A stretch of DNA of 64,000 bases from Tubiluchus corallicola (taxonomy: Eukaryota > Animalia > Priapulida), in assembly GCA_030141605.1 (NCBI GenBank), contig JAQGDQ010000084.1, forward strand, positions 248,001-312,000. The letters run 5' to 3'. Under the pieces are notes generated by a model, which ran no database searches, was not told the DNA's origin, and saw nothing but the letters and a program-made list of their open reading frames with translations. The translations under genes and the position numbers were made by a program. Positions within the stretch are counted from its first letter, which is position 1; each line of letters starts with the position of its first letter. Shown piece by piece: positions 8,198-57,085 of the stretch.

Positions 8198-8781
8198 TTA
8201 ACAAAAAATGCGAAATGACATACTTATCTGAGATCTGTTAGAGCTAGAACTGCTTCCCTTCTGGCAAGGATTTCCTCTTTTGTAAATGCCATTCACGTTG
8301 GTAGCCGTTGTGGCCCAGCTGACGTCCGTCTGTTTGGCTTCGTCTTTTCGTGGACAGCCAAACGCGGCCAGGAAGGCCACCCTGAACCTCTTATTCATGA
8401 AACAGTACGTAATCGGATTGCAACACGAGGAACAATAACCGAGAAGGAACAGATATGATATGGCCGTTGGCGATAGCGTGCTGTATGCAGAGTCACTGTC
8501 ATACATTGCCCACAGATTGATGATGTTAATGGGTGTCCAACAGATGAAGAACTCGAGCACGACAGCGAAGAGCATCTTGATGACTTTGCGTTTGTTGGCC
8601 AGAGCTTTTTCAGAGTTCGTTGCTCTCATTCCTGTCAAAGCTACAGTAGCTGACGATCTAGTCCTTGCACCACCAAATGTTATGATTTGCTGTGCACGTT
8701 TGGGACGTTTCAGATTGAAAATTCTCAGCTTCTTCCTGTTCTGCTGTTTATTTTCTCCCTTGGGGGATAAAACTGTCATTT
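8198..8781 (-). CDS. CCK/sulfakinin receptor-like GPCR, last coding exon (ICL3, TM6, TM7, C-tail)
   Basis: KRKVIKMLFAVVLEFFICWTP and YCSSCCNPITYCFMNKRFR match CCK/sulfakinin receptors. Acceptor TTTCACTGCAG|AA is phase 1, matching exon 3. Stop TAA at 8200-8198. Confidence 0.93.
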
Positions 8782-9924
8782 CTGCAGTGAAAATAGAAAC
8801 ATTGATTTCATTAATAAGCATAAATATCGAGGTAAATAAACTAATTAAAAACAAACATACAATTACAAGCGTACTGAAATATGTGGATATTATACATTAA
8901 AAAGTTGAATTTCTGTAGACATGTTACTTTACTAAGATTTCGTTATCTGTTTTACCAACATCCTGTTGTTTTGGTAAGCTGCATATTTTTATACGAAATT
9001 AACTCATGATTATAATTATCAACAACAAATATTACAACAGCAGAAATGCGACGTCAGAGACATGAGCAACAACAGTGTCGACAATGAGGACGGTCCATCA
9101 GAAGTAAATTTCCACTACTCTTGAAACACCTCCACAAAATGTTAGTGTTATAATAGTTTGAGCTGCGAGCCGTTGTCAAATTTACAGAAATTTGCGTGGT
9201 ACACTTAATGCTTGACCTTTCCACAATGCCATCAATTACTAGAAATTCACAATGTCATCAATTACTAGAAATGTGAAAAGACTTATTGTTCTTGTTTGTT
9301 ACATGGCTTATATATAAAGGGAGACAGTAACTGCCTGTGGTGTGTTATAAATTACGAGCTCTCAGCAACTGCCTGTGGTGTGTTATAAATTACGAGCTTT
9401 ATAAGATTACGTATACGCTTTTTCCGAAGAGAATGAGAATTTTTTAACACTGGACATCTAAAATAGGCCTAGTTAATCTATTGTAAATAAGCCAGTTGCC
9501 ACGTAGTAAACTAACTGTCGTGAATAGAGCGTGTGCCCTGGTCTGACAAGTTTTTGAAGCGGCACCACGATCAACACTGAACCTTTCTTTGGTGCAAGTG
9601 TTAAGTTTCCGTTTAGCATAAAAAGGCATCTTGCTTTTTTTGAAATTACTAGTATTTTTAGCATAGTAAACATTCGACAGACGTGCTGTGGTATTAATTT
9701 GATTAAAATTCGCCGCCATTAAGGTTGATAAATATTTATAAAATCCAGTACAGATGTGGCTGCTACAGCAGGTTTTTGATAAAAGTTGCATTTTTTCCTC
9801 GTGCCAAATTTCACCTGAAAGCAGATTTAACGTTATTATAGATTTAAGATTTCGGGGGCGGGGAGCGGGGTGGGGGTGGGGTAAACTTAACAATAGAATT
9901 TTTCTCTTCGGATTCTGTTAGAAC

Positions 9925-10745: not shown

Positions 10746-11068
10746 AAAGAATCGGCTTTGGTGCTTTTGAGATATTCGCATAAACCCAAGATGGCGCCTA
10801 CCGTGGCCAAAAATCTGTTATCTCATAAACGATCGAGTCTAAGTAAAAAAAATTATTACTGACTGATAGGAATGGGGGTAGTATATTCCAAATGGGGGTA
10901 GTATCTGATGAGGATGGGGTAGTATATGAAAAATCATCCTGTCTTCCTCTAAATAAACCAAATAGTGTCCTTGGTGCACTGTTACATGTCTTAAAATTTG
11001 GACGAAGACAAATAAACTTGATATGCTACTTGAAAATATCAGTTTTTATTTTACCAAAAGTATCTCAC

Positions 11069-11265
11069 CTTGATTTTCACACTTCAGCTCCAATCTTGTG
11101 CTTCCCCAAAGCTCAACAGCTATGAGAGTGTAGGCAATAAACATGACGAGAAGGGGAAGAAAGTAGAGAACTATGGTAACCATTAATGTGAACGCCTCTT
11201 CACTCTTCTCCGAGGGCCAGCGTTCCCGACAGTTGTAACGTCCTCCTGATAACGCTTGATGACGA
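11069..11265 (-). CDS. CCK/sulfakinin receptor-like GPCR, coding exon 3 (ECL2, TM5)
   Basis: RHQALSGGRYNCRERWP...YFLPLLVMFIAYTLIAVELW. Acceptor CATACTTACAG|T and donor G|GTGAGA. 197 nt, phases 2 and 1 are consistent. Confidence 0.92.
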
Positions 11266-11439
11266 CTGTAAGTATGAACAAACGCGTTCTTAAAACACAA
11301 TAATGACGCTGTTGAAAAAGCTGCTCTCAGTACACGTACCGGTAAAGTTCTAAAGAATGAATATATGATACTAACTGAGTATTGAAAGTAGAAGTTTACC
11401 TTATTAACCAATAGATAATGTATTTGAGAGTTAGTTTTG

Positions 11440-31313: not shown

Positions 31314-31917
31314 TTAAAGCAAAACCGGACCCAATCTTGAACTGTAGGTCAAATTAATCTACTCTTTAAAATATTGAAAGAAAACATGCTATTTTTTCAA
31401 CAATGACTTACGTGAAAGAATTATTACCACACAAACACAATTTCACGTTCGTGCCACTAGTTCTTCTTTGTTACATGCATTTCGCTATTCCCTAGTTAGA
31501 CGGACACTAGCGCCTGCATTTCGGATGGTGTTGCACTACCCCTCAATTCAGGTGTATTAGTTTATGACGAACTGCACACGTTCGATAGCTCATGCGTGAG
31601 CACAGTGGTAAACTTGAAATTTGAATTTTTATTTTAAAACTTGCCTAGTTTTAGTACAATAAACTGAATATCTTACAGTAGCACTGTACTTGAATTTTTA
31701 CTTCCGCAGATGCGTGCAACACGCTCGTGGAATGTTTTTGTTTTTGAAAATTATGTTAGTTTGTGATGTCATCAATAGTTAGGTGATTAATTAAGTTTTT
31801 AATCCATTATTTAATTATCAGAAACGCTTTTGCACTATTAATTGTGTTAAAATGAATATTTTTTATCTTCGCTTGAAAATGGCGTAGTAAGTGAAAAATC
31901 ATCCTGTCTTCGTTTAA
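31314..31917 (-). mobile_element. Family A MITE in the first coding intron of the GPCR
   Basis: TTAAAGCAAAACCGGACCC...CCTGTCTTCGTTTAA. Confidence 0.85.
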
Positions 31918-31935
31918 AGGAAAGGCGGTACATAC

Positions 31936-32308
31936 CTTGCAAATAAGCGAGTATGGTGCACACTGCTGCTCCAAATATGAAAGTCCTCAATATGCTTCCC
32001 ACCAACGTGAAGGGCATGCAGAAGACACCCAACAGCAAGTCGCTGACGGCCAAGTTCAAAAGGAAAACGTTGGTGACGGTCCTCATGCGTTTATTCTGTA
32101 TCAGCGTCACAATAACGAGAACGTTTCCCACGAAAGAGAGCACAAATATGACGGCGTAGAGAGCAATTCTCAACTCGACGCTCATCTCCGGAGGAGTGGG
32201 CGCAACTTCCGGAAGTTCCCCTCTAGAAACGTTCGACGTTTGATTTAAACTTTCGTCCACGCTTCTGTTTATCGTATGAAAACTTTGTTCGGTGGGTAAA
32301 ACTGACAT
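31936..32308 (-). CDS. CCK/sulfakinin receptor-like GPCR, coding exon 1 (N-terminus, TM1, TM2, start of TM3)
   Basis: LYAVIFVLSFVGNVLVIVTLIQNKRMRTVTNVFLLNLAVSDLLLGVFCMPFTLVG is typical of CCK receptors. N-terminal sequons NRS, NQT and NVS. Donor G|GTATGT. Start ATG at 32308 (GCCATG context); alternative ATG at 32329. Confidence 0.93.
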
Positions 32309-32701
32309 GGCGACAGTGAATAATTTCATTAAATTTTCTAATAAGTGACTCCACTCATCACTCCATTGCTTCTGAATCACTTCAGTTCATAGACAAGCTT
32401 TAATGTAAAACGCTAAGTAACTTTGTCCATTCAGCTAAGTGCACGATTTCATTTTTATGTGAAAACTTTGTTTTCGTTGAGTTTTGTTCTGACGTGGACC
32501 AAACTCAGCTGCTCTTCTGCTCACAGAATTCCTCTTCGCTGAAGCCAAGTTACAGGTAATATTATGCGCGATGCTCCTGACACGCGAGTCACACACGATT
32601 GAAGCCGCCCTGTTTAGTAACTAATTCACCATCCAACTATAGGAAAACGATTGCCTTCCAAATTTCAAATCTAGAATATAAACCATATTCTGTTTAGTAC
32701 T

Positions 32702-35465: not shown

Positions 35466-35723
35466 ATGGCCCGTTTATACATAAAGCGGGAAACCGCGCG
35501 GTTTCCCGCGCTGATTGCTCACTAAGCGATTTTTCTTATAAAAGCCGCGCGACTTGCCTAGTTTTTGCAAGCAAGCAATCAGAAGTGAGCTTTGTTAATA
35601 CGTCATCAGCAAAAGCTCTGCTTCAGCAGAAACAAAGTGATTTTTACACGTGCTGATGAGATGCACAATTGTTGATAAAACTGAAATGGAATATTATAAA
35701 TGGAGGAGAATCCAATACTATAT

Positions 35724-36153
35724 TGTACTACAGGACTGTGGTGAAATGAAATGTAATGCTAGCAGGGGAATACAGTAGACTTCTCAGGTGTGCATGTGAA
35801 CGTAGCTTTATCTAGCACAGACTCGTATTCTGACCTTGTGTTAGCAAAAGCCGCTAGTCACGTGCACACCTGAGCTTATAAAAAGGGAAGGTCTGCTGTA
35901 GACCCTTGTCAGTGGTCGTGTCTTTCATTGCAGCTCTGTTCACATTTCACAGGCTTGCCGCTAACTCCGTTCTTCTAGGTAAGCTGTTTGTTCCTTATTG
36001 GGGGTGTAATATGTAGTAATAAAATTGTCATTTCGCGTCTATTGTTCGGGTTTTGTTTTGGTTAAGGCGTTGAACGACTTAATTGAGACATGCCGCAAGG
36101 TGTGGGCCGCGGTGCCATCCGTCCTGCCTCCGTTAAAAGCGGACAGCAGTCCA
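35724..36153 (+). mobile_element. Solo LTR, ~430 bp
   Basis: TG...CA ends (TGTACT...AGTCCA) with ATAT on both sides. Internal TATAAAAAGGG and AATAAA. Near-identical copy at 51852-52279. Confidence 0.8.
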
Positions 36154-36253
36154 ATATGATAAAAGCTTAACTGAGTACAAAGACAGTACAAGAAACATCT
36201 TTTACAAAACAATTTTATCTGTTTATCTGTGATTCTTTCTCTGTCTTTCTCTT

Positions 36254-46590: not shown

Positions 46591-47637
46591 TCTCTGTGCC
46601 TACAGTAGATCGAATGAGACTTCGAAGAAAAGGCAGCACACGTACAAATGTCCAGTAGCAGACCGAATAATGGACAACTATAGTTTTATTGTTTCGCCAT
46701 TTTGAAAATTGGCTGTTGGGAAAAAGTCGTTACTTCCTTGTTACATTTTAGAAGGTATGAATTTTATATGCATTTAAACTGGAAGAAAAGACAATTTTAA
46801 ACTATGTCCCAAAAAACTTTCCATGCAAAGTTATGTTACTTACCATTACGCTTACTTACTTTAAAAAGACTTATATACCTAGAAAAGGAAATTCTTGGTA
46901 ATTTAAAATGTTTATGCCACTTGGCAAAACGTCACTGACTCACCTTCCCAGGGTGCACCTCTGATTCACCAAAAACACATTATCGACTTTGCTTAGATAG
47001 TGAAGTGTGCTACGAATGCTCTGACTATTTTTTCAAACTTTATGCAATGTTATCTAAATTTGTTTCAAACTTTATGCAACGTTATCTAAATTTGTTTCAA
47101 ACCAGCTAACATCAAAATGGCTGCGCCTAAAACAGACATCGTGGAAGTCTAAGTTTATGTATTTTATACAACGTTACTGTTAATGCAAACCCTGTATGCA
47201 GTAAGACAGCATGTAAGTGATATTTTGTTTCAAGACGAGTTTTTCTACCTTTGTATAAGTAAAGACTTCTCTTGGGCATATCAAGCAAGTCATATGTCGA
47301 CTCTGGCTTCACTTAGAGGCGAGCATTAATGATGAGTGGGTTACGGTCTTGCCACCCACATCCAGCAAGTCTTGCCGCCTAACCACAAGCTGACACTCTG
47401 CGAGAAGTGTCGAAAGTAACTCACCAACACGTTCACACTAGTTAGCAAATCAACAGTCAAAGAGTTTGCAATAACTAGCCAACGGTAATTCAGAAACTAG
47501 TTCACACTTGCGAGTTTGCTGTCAGAGAGAAAACTCGCTAGTTTGAGCGCCCCCTAACACTGCTAGCAAACAAAATCGATTCGATTGATTGTAGGCCTCA
47601 TATGATCTCCAATCTCTATCAAAAACTATGTGACAAG

Positions 47638-48120: not shown

Positions 48121-49129
48121 TTTACCAAGTATCTTTGCTCATAATCACTACAAAACTCCTCTCTTTTTCCACTAAACGAACGATTAAATCCAATACTGAA
48201 GACGAAAGTTATAAAACAAAAATGGCAACTCTTAATAAACACCCTCCTAATTAGTGCGGAAACAATTCAAAGGAATTTAATTTCCAGGCAAGCAAAGTAA
48301 ACGCTGCAATTAGAGCGTTCTGGGAAAAACTAACAATATTTAATGAGGAGGAGTAATTATTAATTGATTACAGCGCCAAAGATATTGGGTAGAATTCGTG
48401 ATTTATTTAGTATCGACCGTGTCACGCGGCGTAGTGAGTTGCATTATTAAGTTCTCACAGTTTTCTATGAACTAAGTAAACTTGACTTTGTCTCTGTAAG
48501 TTTCATCAATTATTAGTTTGTAAAGGGTTAAATTCATAATACAATATAAATTTTAACTCACGCACACATATGTATATATAATTACATACATAACTCAGGC
48601 AAAATTTATCCTGGTTTTATCGTAAATTTTAGCAAAAGTTCTTGTTCTTATATATTTGCAAGTAAATCGTGCATGTAGAAAAGTTTGTCATTTTTAACAC
48701 TTTCCTAATAGAGTAATCTAAATAATCCCAGTGAATAAATTCTGTTATTATAGACTTTACTTATTATAAATAATTGCTAAGATGTTTTATAAGCAAGTTT
48801 GTGGTACATGTATTAAGGACATAGTTATAATTTACCGTGTTGTATATATTATTTGATAATAATTCTTTCACGTAAGTTATTTTTGAAAAAAAATAGTATG
48901 TTCCCTTTCAATATTTTAAAGAGCAGATTGTTTTGACCTACAGTTTAAGATTGGGTCAAGTTTTGCTTTAAGTTAGTAGGCTACTCTTGACCCCCAGGCG
49001 TCAGAGAAGATCTTAAAACCCATTTATTGTTACTTCCTGAAACAAAGAAGACACTTGTCAAACCGTAGAAGTAATCAATTCATGTCCGAAAGCTACTAAG
49101 TAAAATATTATGGCAGCACAATCACTACT

Positions 49130-49350
49130 GTTCACTTTTCCGTAAGTACGGTTTGTGGACTCTAAGACAGTTGTGTTGTAGTTCTACAAAAGTGTGTTAT
49201 CAAAATAAAATTGTTGTGAAAAAAAATGAGTTTTTCTTCAATGCCTCTGTTACGAAGAAGTTGTTCCATGTAATTCTCATGGTGCTAAAAACGTTTGAAA
49301 ATCTGTTACTGTATGCTGTAAATACTCAAGCAAAACACCTAGTCACCTAG
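49130..49350 (+). pseudogene. Decayed duplicate of the TTLL4-like gene 5' end
   Basis: 49171-49254 aligns with 49778-49861 (MSFSSMPLLR vs MSLSSMPPLR), followed by an in-frame stop. Confidence 0.7.
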
Positions 49351-49811
49351 CGCTTGAACTGCAGTTGGTGATGACCTTGTTCCTCCTGTGAAAAGCAACT
49401 TCAAAAGCAAACCACTGGTCAAGTGATTAAATGTTAAACTTCTAGAAACAACGAGGTTAATTGTAGCGGACGAAGGGGTGACAGATTCAAAACAAAACTG
49501 CATTGTTAAGCTATTAATGCATATGATAAACATACTGTACCTGCTTACAAACAAAACTGTACTTAACATGACTGTTTCTACGTAGATTACAGTGCGCAAA
49601 ATCCAGGTAAACATTATTATGAGTACGTGAATGGAACTATTAAGTCAATTATGCGGAGTTATTTGAGTAAAGTGGCGCTTGTTTTATATACATTTGAATA
49701 GAAGGTTTTTGAGTCAATTAAGAGACTGATTCTATTCACCGTGAGTCTAATGAACGGCGCCTACTGTATGAGACCTTTGTGTTGCAGGTCTAACAAAAGT
49801 TTGTTATCAAA

Positions 49812-51515
49812 ATGAAATTGTTGTGTGATAAAATGAGTCTTTCTTCAATGCCACCGTTACGTTCTTTGCCTATACTGATTATTTTATTGCTGTTAAAGCG
49901 ACAATTAACAATTACAGCTGGACAAAATATGGAACTTCTTGTCGACCGGTCGTCTATTAGTCACTGGCTCACACTGAATGGACAACAAAACGACACAGAC
50001 GCATCATGTGTTCGGACACTTCCAGCGGTCATCCCAAGTATTTTTTCAAACGTTCCATCTGTCATGAATTTTGGCTTGTATGGGCAAATAGTTCAGGAAT
50101 TGCCAAGCTATTTGAAGAAAAAACTCAAATGGAAATTTAGTGCAAAGGGTGGCACTGCAGATATACAATACTTAAAAAGGATGCTACTGCTTTCGAATTT
50201 CCAATTCACAGACAGTCCTGACTGGATCGCTTACACTAGCATGTTGTACAATAAAACGATGCCGGTCCTCCACGAAGGAGGGAAATTTAACCAGCTCCCA
50301 GGCTCCCAGAAGGAAGCCATGCAAAAAGACACTTTATGGAGAAACATGAAAACTCTGATCTCAAAACACGGACAAGAAGAATTCGATTTTGTCCCACAGA
50401 CTTTCATATTACCAGAAGAATTGTTTGAATTTTATGAGTACTATGGCAACCAGAAAAATCCAGGATTGTGGATTTATAAACCGTGGAACAGAGGGAGAGG
50501 CATCGGTATTGAAGTCATCAACTCGACGATCCAGTTACCAAACGCAGAAATAGTAATACAAGATTATATATCAAAGCCATATCTTCTCGATGGCTTTAAG
50601 GTCGATTTGAGAGTATTTGTTTACGTTTCATCGCTAGATCCGTTAAGGATTTATATACACGAGCTCGGAGCTATCAGAATTGCTACGGAAAAATATTCCA
50701 CTAATTCACTATATGACAAATTCATTCATATTACCAATGTGTTCATTCAAAAGAAAAGTCCAAAATATGACTTTTCAAAACACATGCAAAGTTTGCAAGA
50801 TCTTTGGCGTTACTTAAAACAGAAGGGCATCGATACTAAGCTTATTTGGCAACAAATCCAAGATTTAGTTGTAAAACAGTTTATTGCTGGTGAAAAAGTT
50901 TTGTACAATATGATGAACGCCCACGGTAAGAGCCCTTATTGTTGCAATGAACTATTTGGACACGATATTATCTTAGATGACCAACTGAAACCATGGTTGA
51001 TGGAAGCTAACACCTTTACTGCATTTGGAGATGATAATATCGGAGAGATGTTGCGAGACCGACTCAATTTAGCTGGATATCGTTTGCCAGAAACACCGAG
51101 AATTCGTATTAGCAAAACTGAGAGTAATTTCTCGAACACTTTTGAGCACATCGTAGGACCCACGTTACCAAAGCCATTATCTAGTTCAACTCTCAAGCCA
51201 CACGAACATTTAAAGCGTCTCCACTTTACAACTAACGCATCAGAAGAGGAAATAGAATCTCACATTCTAGACGATCTTACACCAGCTGATGTACGTGAAC
51301 TAGTAGAAGCAGAGGATGAGTACCAGAGACGAGGAGGTTTCCAGCGAATCTTTCCAAGTCCGAGATCTCATAAATACCTTAGATATTTTGAGCAAAGGCG
51401 TTACAGTAATTTACTACTCGATGCCTGGACAAGGAAGTATCATAAGAATCCCAGTAAAGGATGGGAAATATTGGAAAAGTTATGCAAAAACATCAGCAAT
51501 GCTTGTGATTCATGA
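49812..51515 (+). CDS. TTLL4: TTLL4-like tubulin-tyrosine-ligase-family ATP-grasp ligase with an N-terminal signal-peptide-like segment; uninterrupted CDS, likely start at 49833
   Basis: PSIFSNVP, KDTLWRN, FVPQTFILP, WIYKP..RGIGI, QDYISKPYL, KVDLRVFVYV..DPLRIY, ELFGHDIILD..LKPWLMEAN, and the TTLL4-type tail LTPADVRELVEAEDE..RRGGFQRIFP. It is probably a divergent paralog, not the canonical ortholog. Confidence 0.9.
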   Translation: MKLLCDKMSLSSMPPLRSLPILIILLLLKRQLTITAGQNMELLVDRSSISHWLTLNGQQNDTDASCVRTLPAVIPSIFSNVPSVMNFGLYGQIVQELPSYLKKKLKWKFSAKGGTADIQYLKRMLLLSNFQFTDSPDWIAYTSMLYNKTMPVLHEGGKFNQLPGSQKEAMQKDTLWRNMKTLISKHGQEEFDFVPQTFILPEELFEFYEYYGNQKNPGLWIYKPWNRGRGIGIEVINSTIQLPNAEIVIQDYISKPYLLDGFKVDLRVFVYVSSLDPLRIYIHELGAIRIATEKYSTNSLYDKFIHITNVFIQKKSPKYDFSKHMQSLQDLWRYLKQKGIDTKLIWQQIQDLVVKQFIAGEKVLYNMMNAHGKSPYCCNELFGHDIILDDQLKPWLMEANTFTAFGDDNIGEMLRDRLNLAGYRLPETPRIRISKTESNFSNTFEHIVGPTLPKPLSSSTLKPHEHLKRLHFTTNASEEEIESHILDDLTPADVRELVEAEDEYQRRGGFQRIFPSPRSHKYLRYFEQRRYSNLLLDAWTRKYHKNPSKGWEILEKLCKNISNACDS

Positions 51516-51851
51516 ATTTAATACACGGCTGTATAGTTAACTCTCTGATAAGTTATTTTTACATTTTTTCTTTCCCCATTCTTGCAACTTATTAGGGAAA
51601 ACAACTTTATCCTGAAAAAACTGAAATCACATTCTGATTTGGTGTGTAAATGTTCAGTGAAATTTAGGTTTTAGCACCAATCTTTATACCCCATATTGTC
51701 TTTGATACACCATATCCCATATGCATTTTATACCCATCTTAATAGTAATGTCAGTATAAATTACCCTATTTCTAAAACCTATTTATTATTATTTATAATG
51801 ATAACTATATATTTATTAAGACCTATTTATTGATGTTATTTCAAAACATAT

Positions 51852-52279
51852 TGTACTGCAGGGCTGTGGTGTGAAATGAAATGTAATGCTGGCAAGGAAT
51901 ACAGTAGACTTCTCAGGTGTGCATGTGAACGTGGCTTTATCTAGCACAAACTCGTATTCTTACCTTGTGTTAGTAAAAGCCACTAGTCACGTGCACACCA
52001 GAGCTTATAAAAAGGGAAGGTCTGCTGTAGACCCTTGTCAGTGGTCGTGTCTTTCATTGCAGCTCTGTTCACATTTCACAGGCTTGCCGCTAACTCCGTT
52101 CTTCTAGGTAAGCTGTTTGTTCCTTATTGGGGGTGTAATATGTAGTAATAAAATTGTCATTTAGACTCTATTGTTTGGGTGTTTTGGGTTTGGTGCTGAA
52201 GGACTTAATTGAGACATACCGCACGGTGTGGGCGGTGTTGCCATCCGTCCTGCCTCCGTTAAAAGCGGACAGCAGTCCA
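51852..52279 (+). mobile_element. Solo LTR, same family as 35724-36153
   Basis: TGTACT...AGTCCA with ATAT on both sides. Confidence 0.8.
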
Positions 52280-53199
52280 ATATGTACATGTATTTACGAT
52301 GGAAACATCTTGAAAAAGGATGATATTATAGGCGTTTAACCATCAGACATGGATTGACCTTGAAAATCCTATATTTCGACACTAAAGTTATTATCCGGTC
52401 TGCTCTTATAGCTAAGAAAATAGTTCTTAAAAGCTAGCAACAGCCATATTGTTAGCCATCTTGAAAATTGCAATGGATTGATTTCATAACCAAAATTAAT
52501 CACTTTAACGAGCTCTGGCTGTGCGTATCATGCTTTTGAGTCAAAACGAACGCTTTTCCTCTTTTCTGCTAAACTAAATACCCATTTCTCTTGGTCAAAT
52601 GGCGGCCATCTTTTTCGATGTCATAATTTCTGATGTTCAAATTTAGAGCCTTTCTGGCTCAAATTTCGGCGTATTTTGGATATGTTATTTTTTTAACCAA
52701 ATACTACAAGGAAACACCAAAAACCATTTTCTTGGGTTTCTTATGGTAAGTCAATAAACTGACCGTACTATAAGCAACTGTGTATTATAAAATGTAGACT
52801 GTCATATTTTACTGTTTTTACTGTATCTGACTGTTGTGTTTTGTTTCTCTCGGAAGGCTCGCAAAGAAAACCAGAAAACACTTCGTCAAATTAAACTAGT
52901 TTATTAAGCGAGAATTCTACAATGCAAAAGTATGAAGGAACGCGAAATGTTTACAGTAAACGTGAAGATCAGGAAACGTTTGAGTGTATCTGAAAATACA
53001 TGTATACAAGAGAATGTGTATGTGTACGTCCGTGCGAATCTGCGTGTGTGTGTGTCTCAGCGGCCTGCTTCGCCTTATATCGGGTGCCAGGGAACATTCT
53101 AGACGTTTCTTTCTAGAACATTCTACAAGGTAAGACGATTATTCTAACGGAACATTCTACAATGTTCTATTTAATTCTAATAGATGCCAGCGATCTCCA

Positions 53200-53986
53200 C
53201 AACACTGACCCAACATATCGAATGACCTATGTAGACGACCTTTTTAGCTCTAAGCTGTCTGCGTGTTTATGAGGCCAGCAACGCCTTCACTAGTCACTTA
53301 TTCCGTGATGATATACGTCTTGCACCTTATGATTGCAGTTTTGCAATTAGACATACTAATTGACTTCTGTTCGTATCTAGCTAACTTGCTTGACATGCAT
53401 GGTTATCGATGGTAAAGTGTGCAAACATTGGATTAGTATTTTATTGAACAATTCTCTTCTCAATTACTGAATCGCATTACGAAAGGCTTATTGAAACAAC
53501 TACATTAAACTTACTTTTTAATAGAGGAACTAAATTATTTCGGTATAGAATAGGCGAACAAAATACAGATTGCTGTCATTGTAATAAAGCAACTCCTCAA
53601 ACACCAGAACACGTTATATTTGACTGTGATTTGGTAGACCATCAATTTCGAATGAATATAAGACAAATTCTGCCCTCAGCCAACATAAGCGAGATTTATC
53701 TAAAAAGAGATAAAGATGTGTGCCAGGCATATGTAAATATTGTTAGAGATGTTGTGCGGAAAAAATTGTTACAAAGTAATTCAAATTATATTCACAGAAA
53801 AACAGGTACTGAGTTAATCGTTATATAAGTTATAGTGTAAACTATGTATATATTTTAAATTTATTCTTAATTGGCATTATGTATAATCTTGTCATCGTAA
53901 ATAGTTACATTTTGTAAACGCACCTCTGCAAATAGAGGGGAAACAATGTATTCATTGTTTAATAAAAGACTTATAATAATAATAAT
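53200..53986 (+). mobile_element. 3' end of a non-LTR retrotransposon
   Basis: YVDD remnant near 53225 and zinc knuckle CCHCNKATPQTPEHVIFDC at about 53571-53627. AATAAA is followed by a (TAA)n tail at about 53961-53986. Confidence 0.7.
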
Positions 53987-55426: not shown

Positions 55427-57085
55427 AGCAACAACAGCTGTCTATTGTGTTGTGTTTGGATTGCATGTTTTTAATGGAGTGACGTTGTACAAAAACTTGT
55501 AAATTTAAACTCCCTCAACGACAGTTAGGCGCAGCCATTTTGACAGTAAATTGTTTCAAAGAAGTTTAGATACCATTTCGTAAATTTTGAAAAAATAATC
55601 AGAGCATTCCTAGCACTCTTCACTAACTAAGAAAAAGTGGAAATGATTTTATCTTCTCAGTAAGATCAACAATGTGTTTTTTGGTGAATCAGTGGTGCAC
55701 ACTGGGATGGTGGTACAGTGACGTTTTACCTGCTGACGGTTTTACCTGCTGCTGAATTTTCTTTTAAAGTTTACATTAAGTTTCAAAACGGGTAGGCGAA
55801 CTGCTAAGTAACTTGCATGAAAATTTTTTACGGCATAATTTAAAATTCTTGTCCTTTAAATCAGGGATTCAAATCAAAAACTCCATACACCAAGTTGAAT
55901 GTTTCTATTTTTCTAACCCATCACTGTTCATAAGAAAATTCATAATTTTTGTTCAAAACATCTTCTAAATACTTGAAAACAAGAAGGACACCGTGTTTTT
56001 TTTCATTTCTAAATGCAATTTTAATGTGAGAACAAAATCGTTCATAAGTCGGCAACTAGCTTTTCCTGATATTCACACAATTATCCTGAATCTCCATTTC
56101 ATGAGGATCATTTTGATACCAAGTTCATCACTCTATGTTATTTCTAAGGTGAGATAATCCATGTTGAAGTTGAGCTGCAGGCTGCGCAGTGAAAAACATA
56201 ATCTTGAGAAAATCGCTGTTAAAGTTCGCCATCGCGTCTCTACAAAACACTTAGCAACCGCACAAAATGTTGGTTGCTATGGACTTTGCAAGAGCAAATT
56301 GAAGTTACGTTTAAATCCAGTAGATGGCTCTTCCTGACCAAGATCTGGTCTTGTCAACAGAAAAAACCTGAAGCAAAATGGGTTCTTCCACGAGCTACAA
56401 CGGGGAGAAAATACAAGTTTTATCCACAGTTGCAGAAAAGTAGGTAAGGAGTTATAAAATTAGATTTTTAGTATTTTTCAGCATTTTCTTGATAATTTGA
56501 TGCCAGAATACAAAACTCCAATATATTTAGCATTTGTTTTCATAAAAAAAATGTAAAAAAAATCGACTTTTAAGCAAATTTTTGGTGCGTTCTACTTTGG
56601 AGCATGATAACATAGTTTTTTAAAAAAACTAGTTATTAAAACTAGTTAGTTAAAACTATGCCGAATTATGGACGGAAGCATTATTGGTTATGTCACAGCA
56701 TCGCTGCAGGTTAGCTAAAGTTTTTTAGCCGCATTGCACAGATTTTCTTTATGAAGCTTAATCAACCAAAACAAGTAATTAGGCTAATCTTCTCGCGGAG
56801 TTATTGTGGACAGCTAGATTAATTAAATCGAGAAATACGGGCAATCTTTGACGGAATGTTCATTTCACTGCCATTTCGACAAACGAAGTAAATTAGCGTA
56901 ATTTTATCCTAGTATTCAATTTGATCAATTTGATCAATTTGATCACGTATGATCAATTTGAAAGCCAGGATAGGATAAATTACTGTTGATTTGCCTCGGG
57001 GGGGGGGAAGCTCATGTACCGCCCTGGACGCCTCAAGCACTTAGGTACCCGTTACTGCATAAAAGATCTAAGAGAGACCCTTTTA

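Follow-up and report, generated by a model that had tools for sequence, protein, structure and literature searches.

The window, by which we mean the whole 64,000-nucleotide stretch of DNA analysed, is animal DNA with a GC content of 36%, long microsatellites and, on the minus strand, a multi-exon gene for a rhodopsin-family GPCR. Exons of the latter lie at 8198-8896, 11046-11400 and 31847-32386 (minus strand), the first and the last being recognised by Pfam 7tm_1, and we would liken the receptor to the CCK/sulfakinin receptors. On the plus strand, a coding sequence at 49812..51515 specifies P0001, a 567-aa TTLL4-derived ATP-grasp ligase which is collinear with TTLL4 proteins over residues ~68-560. 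Its 567 codons are uninterrupted and the coding region is without an intron. Following an in-frame TAA at 49791-49793 upstream of M1, the reading frame stays open from position 49794 as far as the stop at 51515, and it contains in-frame Met codons at 49812 (M1), 49833 (M8, the first residue of the sequence cited in the initial annotation) and 49848 (M13).

Repeated DNA surrounds the gene. A 440-bp element is found twice in the window (51848-52284 and 35720-36158; 93% identity), with one copy situated just 3′ of the P0001 gene. Further downstream, a 126-codon open frame (53448-53828, plus strand) carries the pattern C-x-x-C...E-H-V-x-x-x-C, which resembles the zinc knuckle at the end of non-LTR retrotransposon proteins. 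At 46793-47130 and 55525-55847 the gene is flanked by members of an interspersed repeat family in opposite orientations. These were considered as the ends of a gene-carrying transposon, an idea that was rejected because the two copies are 67% alike and at least seven further copies of the family are present in the window.

The 5′ end of the gene has been duplicated. A candidate 5′-UTR splice acceptor, recognised by sequence only, consists of an AG ending at 49787 and followed by the in-frame TAA (49776..49793, plus strand), and therefore an exon joined there would add no coding sequence in frame. About 600 bp upstream lies a decayed second copy of the 5′ end (~130 bp; 49126..49254, plus strand), which matches 49724-49861. 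It keeps the acceptor-like AG and the ATG of M8, lacks the ATG of M1 and has a stop before M8, which hints at M8 as the older start. A frameshifted hydrophobic continuation of this copy past 49254 was also considered and is not significant (p 0.57). The DNA between the two 5′-end copies (49295..49790, strand unassigned) is a multi-copy interspersed repeat represented by many diverged contigs of run X1, 68 of them at position 49737 for example. Translation of P0001 likely starts at M8 or M1.

The TTLL4-type core (residues ~68-560; 50013..51491, plus strand) is defined by alignment to TTLL4 proteins. It includes a Pfam TTL domain (PF03133, residues 157-401; 50280-51014, plus strand) with an E value of 1.6e-64 and a score of 218 bits against a cut-off of 20.1, and TTL is the only domain that Pfam finds in P0001. 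The initial annotation had placed the start of this core some 60 aa downstream of the start, and homology does begin at residue ~68-70, about 60 residues after M8. The best named relatives are animal TTLL4 proteins, which are 37-42% identical over residues ~68-560. The closest relative is a Logan protein, P0002 (57-60% identical), which starts at residue 124 of P0001 and is thus uninformative about the leader. A profile search added no close relative beyond P0002, and a metagenome scan with P0001 and P0002 gave 156 pattern matches with no relative among them. The structure model of P0001, built from 146 sequences, is confident, with a pLDDT of 86.7, residues 1-61 being mostly low; its best Foldseek match is TTLL6 (6vzt; E 6.5e-30), and by sequence the best PDB matches are TTLL6 and TTLL7.

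The proposal that the protein is nested in TTLL4 agrees with a 50-row LG+C20 quick tree (rows selected from a set of 101, with contig L002 added and no glycylase included), in which P0001 lies inside TTLL4 as against TTLL5, TTLL7 and TTLL13 with SH-aLRT values of 97 and 96. A 101-row FastTree likewise puts it in TTLL4. In the 50-row tree P0001 and P0002 occupy a long branch, and one side of a branch with a support of only 68 holds P0001, the Lingula and JGI proteins described below, and three further divergent rows. An AU test rejected a nesting of P0001 with the clade surrounding Haliotis TTLL4 (p 0.009, for a group picked after the tree had been seen and with long branches in play); a group of P0001 and Lingula alone was not rejected (p 0.19). 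By these trees a common origin of P0001 and the Lingula family is neither shown nor rejected, and long-branch attraction could give such a pattern.

Ahead of the core is a predicted signal peptide spanning residues 1-37, or 30 aa counted from M8 (49812..49922, plus strand), as delimited by hydropathy and the (-3,-1) rule only. The initial annotation had described a leader with a basic residue, a hydrophobic core of about 10 residues and a small-residue TAG|Q site, and had pointed to a KRQ directly after that core. All of these are present: R16, an uncharged run at residues 18-28 with a 10-residue hydrophobic core at 19-28 (49866-49895, plus strand), KRQ at residues 29-31, and G37. Two candidate cleavage sites are compatible with the (-3,-1) rule, namely ITA|G (after A36) and TAG|Q (after G37), leaving a c-region of 8-9 residues that includes the KRQ. 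By simple rules the leader thus has a basic n-region, a hydrophobic h-region and a small-residue site, with the reservations that the h-region is short and that KRQ falls in the c-region. An Atlas search with residues 8-66 gave no usable match, and one with the whole protein returned TTL clusters only.

The same build occurs in other animals. N-termini were screened in 205 fetched proteins and then in 304. Lingula anatina XP_013397583.1 proved to be a TTLL4-like protein with a signal-like leader, and a search with it yielded further Lingula paralogs; all of those having an N-terminus (6/6) combine a hydrophobic leader and small-residue site with a bare core and a short tail. The JGI metagenome protein P0212 has the same leader, core and short tail, and the Met of the P0212-type leader comes after an in-frame stop in the JGI contigs L001 and L002. 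None of 110 ordinary TTLL4-type N-termini reached a 9-residue hydropathy of 2.75 or more, versus eight of nine distinct N-termini from the divergent branch, with the cut-off chosen after the data had been seen and the eight positives representing three lineages only. The 110 are those of our 135 comparison rows (mostly TTLL4, a few TTLL5-like) that start with Met and have at least 20 residues before the core; the ordinary row P0062, which starts with Val and has a hydropathy of 2.64, falls outside this count. Five divergent rows that lack an N-terminus and two that repeat the leader of P0212 were likewise not counted. The exception in the divergent group is P0021 from Eurytemora, which is without a hydrophobic leader (0.66). 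P0021 is annotated as TTLL7, yet it falls in TTLL4 in both trees. The divergent proteins end 10-16 residues past the core (0 in one partial row), against a median of 62.

The leader might instead be untranslated, that is, a T-rich intron end or 5′ UTR ahead of a cytosolic, truncated TTLL4 retrocopy beginning at M40 or in an upstream exon. The absence of a coding intron is as expected of a retrocopy, the GC content drops from 39% in the core to 32% in the leader, and two AG sites that are possible acceptors, 49898 (phase 0, 58% T upstream) and 49917 (phase 1), come right after the hydrophobic codons. Both sites are weaker than two apparent splice acceptors in the nearby GPCR gene, which are T-rich CAG sequences: the pyrimidine tract of AG 49917 is poor (37%) and AG 49898 reads AAG. 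Moreover, an open Met-led extension of at least 20 residues arose in only 5% of 87,238 overlapping chance 39-codon stretches, and the best 9-residue Kyte-Doolittle mean of the leader (3.43) was matched by just one of 237 independent chance ORFs (ATG-started, at least 25 codons, from the unmasked non-coding DNA of the window). Together with the recurrence of the build in unrelated animals, these figures make an untranslated leader unlikely. Contigs of runs X1 and X2 carry no weight either way, none of them spanning 49833-50006.

A leader that is translated could also act as an uncleaved membrane anchor, giving either a Golgi type II protein or one on the cytosolic face of a membrane. Lysine and arginine after a hydrophobic core can block cleavage or, by the positive-inside rule, favour a cytosolic C-terminus, and P0001 has KR straight after its core; the structure model also draws a helix over residues 20-35, albeit at low confidence. 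Against this, a membrane span usually takes more than ten hydrophobic residues, and the best 19-residue hydropathy mean is 1.79. The Lingula proteins P0221 and P0094 and JGI P0212 also have K or R just after the core, yet possess small-residue cleavage sites. We consider an anchor improbable, and the leader of P0001 is probably a genuine targeting signal.

Two further features listed in the initial annotation have no value as evidence for secretion. The six sequons are real, but they are uninformative: shuffled sequences average 3.3 (P=0.10), and 131 ordinary TTLL4-type cores average 4.8, more than the four in the P0001 core. Cysteines near the two ends do not serve as a secretory hint, since 91 of 135 ordinary rows have Cys at C558 as well, and the other leader-bearing proteins do not share C66 or C565.

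To examine the active site, positions of TTLL6 were mapped onto P0001 by means of PDB alignments and a preprint on the structure of TTLL6, of which the part available to us names K125, K174, N264 and R241 (bioRxiv 10.1101/2020.06.07.139295). The nine TTLL6 positions K125, K174, D217, R219, R241, N264, D346, E359 and N361 were checked, and all nine ATP, metal and phosphate residues are kept in P0001 (K172, K223, D265, R267, R289, N309, D385, E398 and N400). For D217, R219, D346, E359 and N361 these roles are our assumption; their positions are near-invariant in the alignment. Also kept, by alignment, is R229 (50496..50498, plus strand), at the position of TTLL6 Q180, the arginine that marks branch-initiating TTLLs; it is Arg in 126 of the 135 other rows.

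The donor pocket has been rebuilt. The first of the two glutamate-selecting lysines, K283 in TTLL6, is replaced by M325 (50784..50786, plus strand), which follows a loop ~7 residues shorter than that of TTLL4; the second, K377, is replaced by I410 (51039..51041, plus strand), which follows a loop ~6 residues shorter. These positions are Lys in 129 and 132 of the 135 other rows, respectively; both replacements stand beside deletions, so that their exact register rests on the alignment. In TTLL6 the two lysines bind the γ-carboxylate of the donor glutamate, and according to the available part of the preprint they are invariant in glutamylases and give way to hydrophobic or polar residues in glycylases (bioRxiv 10.1101/2020.06.07.139295). 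With both of them lost, P0001 likely attaches an amino acid other than glutamate. Y265 and S266 of TTLL6 have in addition become V310 and F311. The picture is complicated by P0002, which carries Arg at the position of K283 and has a net charge of +17 in residues 171-330, where P0001 has 0; the donor-pocket residues vary among the leader-bearing proteins. In three divergent TTLL4-type proteins, P0021, P0109 and P0150, the first donor lysine is retained, and in P0109 and P0150 the second is Asn. L001 (13-1599) and L002 (10-1620) are near-identical in their signal-peptide and C-terminal ends and strongly different in the catalytic middle, a pattern that may reflect a chimeric assembly, gene conversion or swapped exon blocks. 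They lack the Arg that binds the carboxylate of the donor (F and L instead), so that they may use an amine as donor in place of an amino acid.

Changes of this kind raise the question of whether the protein, though secreted or lumenal, is a protein amino-acid ligase at all. It could be catalytically dead, or it could join small molecules or cross-link peptide ends through an opened pocket. The loss of either lysine abolishes glutamylation by TTLL6, as stated in the available text of the preprint (bioRxiv 10.1101/2020.06.07.139295). In P0001 both donor-pocket loops are shortened and a proline present in 135/135 rows is T403, which could mean decay; the variation of the pocket among leader-bearing relatives points the same way. 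On the other side stand the intact set of nine ATP, metal and phosphate residues, the retention of 66 of 93 positions with a conservation of 90% or more in ordinary rows (27 are changed), and P0002, in which the same catalytic set persists at ~40% divergence. We regard an enzyme without amino-acid ligase activity on proteins as unlikely.

Other copies of the gene bear on its maintenance, the substitution counts given here resting on the part of the differences that is listed. A contig of run X1 is near-identical over 50229-50869, where it differs at 7 of 641 bases without a gap; of its three listed differences two are silent. Paralogs are suggested by several X1 contigs that agree with parts of the gene at ~80-83% of positions. 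In run X2, which we only guess to be RNA, one contig is 83% alike over 51229-51391 with 28 differences in all, and eight of the ten listed are silent (22% expected). In other diverged X1 contigs (51055-51397) none of the six listed differences is silent, which may mean that some copies are in decay or diverge rapidly. It is conceivable that the P0001 gene is itself a recently dead member of a secretory paralog family whose lesions are not yet visible, given the decayed 5′-end copy lying among repeats 600 bp upstream and the several diverged X1 copies. The run of 567 codons free of stops and frameshifts, and the gapless near-identity of the X1 contig, make this very improbable.

Taken together, we propose, with a probability of roughly 55%, that P0001 is an ER/Golgi or secreted ATP-dependent ligase that attaches one amino acid other than glutamate to Glu side chains in secreted proteins. 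The predicted leader would take the protein into the ER and be cut after A36 or G37. By analogy with TTLL6 chemistry, the γ-carboxyl group of an internal Glu would then be phosphorylated by ATP to an acyl phosphate, and the amino group of the donor would attack this intermediate, leaving a one-residue isopeptide branch on the secreted protein. Because R289, the holder of the α-carboxylate of the donor, is kept, the donor is likely a free amino acid, and a pocket now lined by M325, I410, V310 and F311 suggests that it is neutral (glycine-like or hydrophobic). The ER lumen imports ATP, and secretory kinases work there. The initial annotation had suggested that a TTLL4 paralog was rerouted to the secretory pathway. 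Its sequon and cysteine arguments have fallen away, but TTLL4 descent, the same build in Lingula and the metagenome, and a rebuilt glutamate pocket beside an intact ATP site speak for it, and the idea is well supported by comparison, if unproven.

A broader and much more tentative reading, which we doubt on balance, is that P0001, the Lingula family and the metagenome proteins belong to a single ancient animal subfamily of secretory TTLL4 ligases that has been overlooked. Its members would have expanded independently in several lineages and diversified their donor pockets, and would write undescribed isopeptide branches or cross-links of amino acids or amines on extracellular proteins. If this were true, a writer of the tubulin code would have turned into a matrix-modifying enzyme. 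The targets of characterised TTLL enzymes are cytosolic, ciliary or nuclear proteins; if a TTLL4 branch works in the ER, in the Golgi or outside the cell, some invertebrates branch the glutamates of their secreted proteins with amino acids. The varied donor pockets would also be natural variants for the engineering of protein-labelling ligases.

The available main text of a 2026 review of tubulin glutamylation contains no word beginning with "secret" (PMC13137484). Our literature search, with most subscription journals and supplements outside its range, found no account of signal-peptide TTLL4 paralogs and no report of amino-acid branches on glutamates of secreted proteins. The nearest precedent that it found is C7orf58, the gene name of which we take to be CPED1. 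In the part of the source available to us, the C7orf58 protein is a predicted secreted TTL-like amino-acid ligase of animals, proposed to modify surface proteins (PMC2824669), and in being predicted as a secreted TTL-like ligase it resembles P0001. Its ATP-grasp domain, which was detected in a profile search, is distantly related to TTL and is joined to a cadherin-like and a PC-esterase domain (PMC2824669), whereas P0001 is a stand-alone, close derivative of TTLL4 whose core fills residues 68-560 of 567 with no fusion domains.

The Lingula anatina TTLL4-like paralogs, known by database annotation only, share with P0001 a signal-like leader, a bare core, a short tail and an altered donor pocket. 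They are only 32-37% identical to it, and most have Gly in place of the initiase Arg and Arg at the K283 position, where P0001 keeps the Arg and has Met. On the partial sources available, the glycylases TTLL3 and TTLL8 also combine the initiase arginine with non-lysine residues at both donor positions. They are cytosolic or ciliary tubulin enzymes of another TTLL branch, whereas P0001 belongs to TTLL4 in a tree built without glycylases. TTLL4 itself, the branch-initiating tubulin monoglutamylase, has a core collinear with that of P0001 from the S-L/I-F-x-N-x-P motif to the last helix, and P0001 keeps its initiase arginine and nests in its clade. The two differ in that P0001 has a hydrophobic leader of ~37 aa where a long N-terminus is usual (the median ahead of the core is 237 aa), a C-terminal tail of 13 aa past the core against a median of 62 in ordinary rows, and a less basic core, whose net charge of +3 falls near the 5th percentile of a distribution with a median of +21; it has neither donor-glutamate lysine nor a coding intron. 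By descent, as read from its sequence, P0001 is a TTLL4; by the lysine criterion it is predicted not to be a glutamylase.
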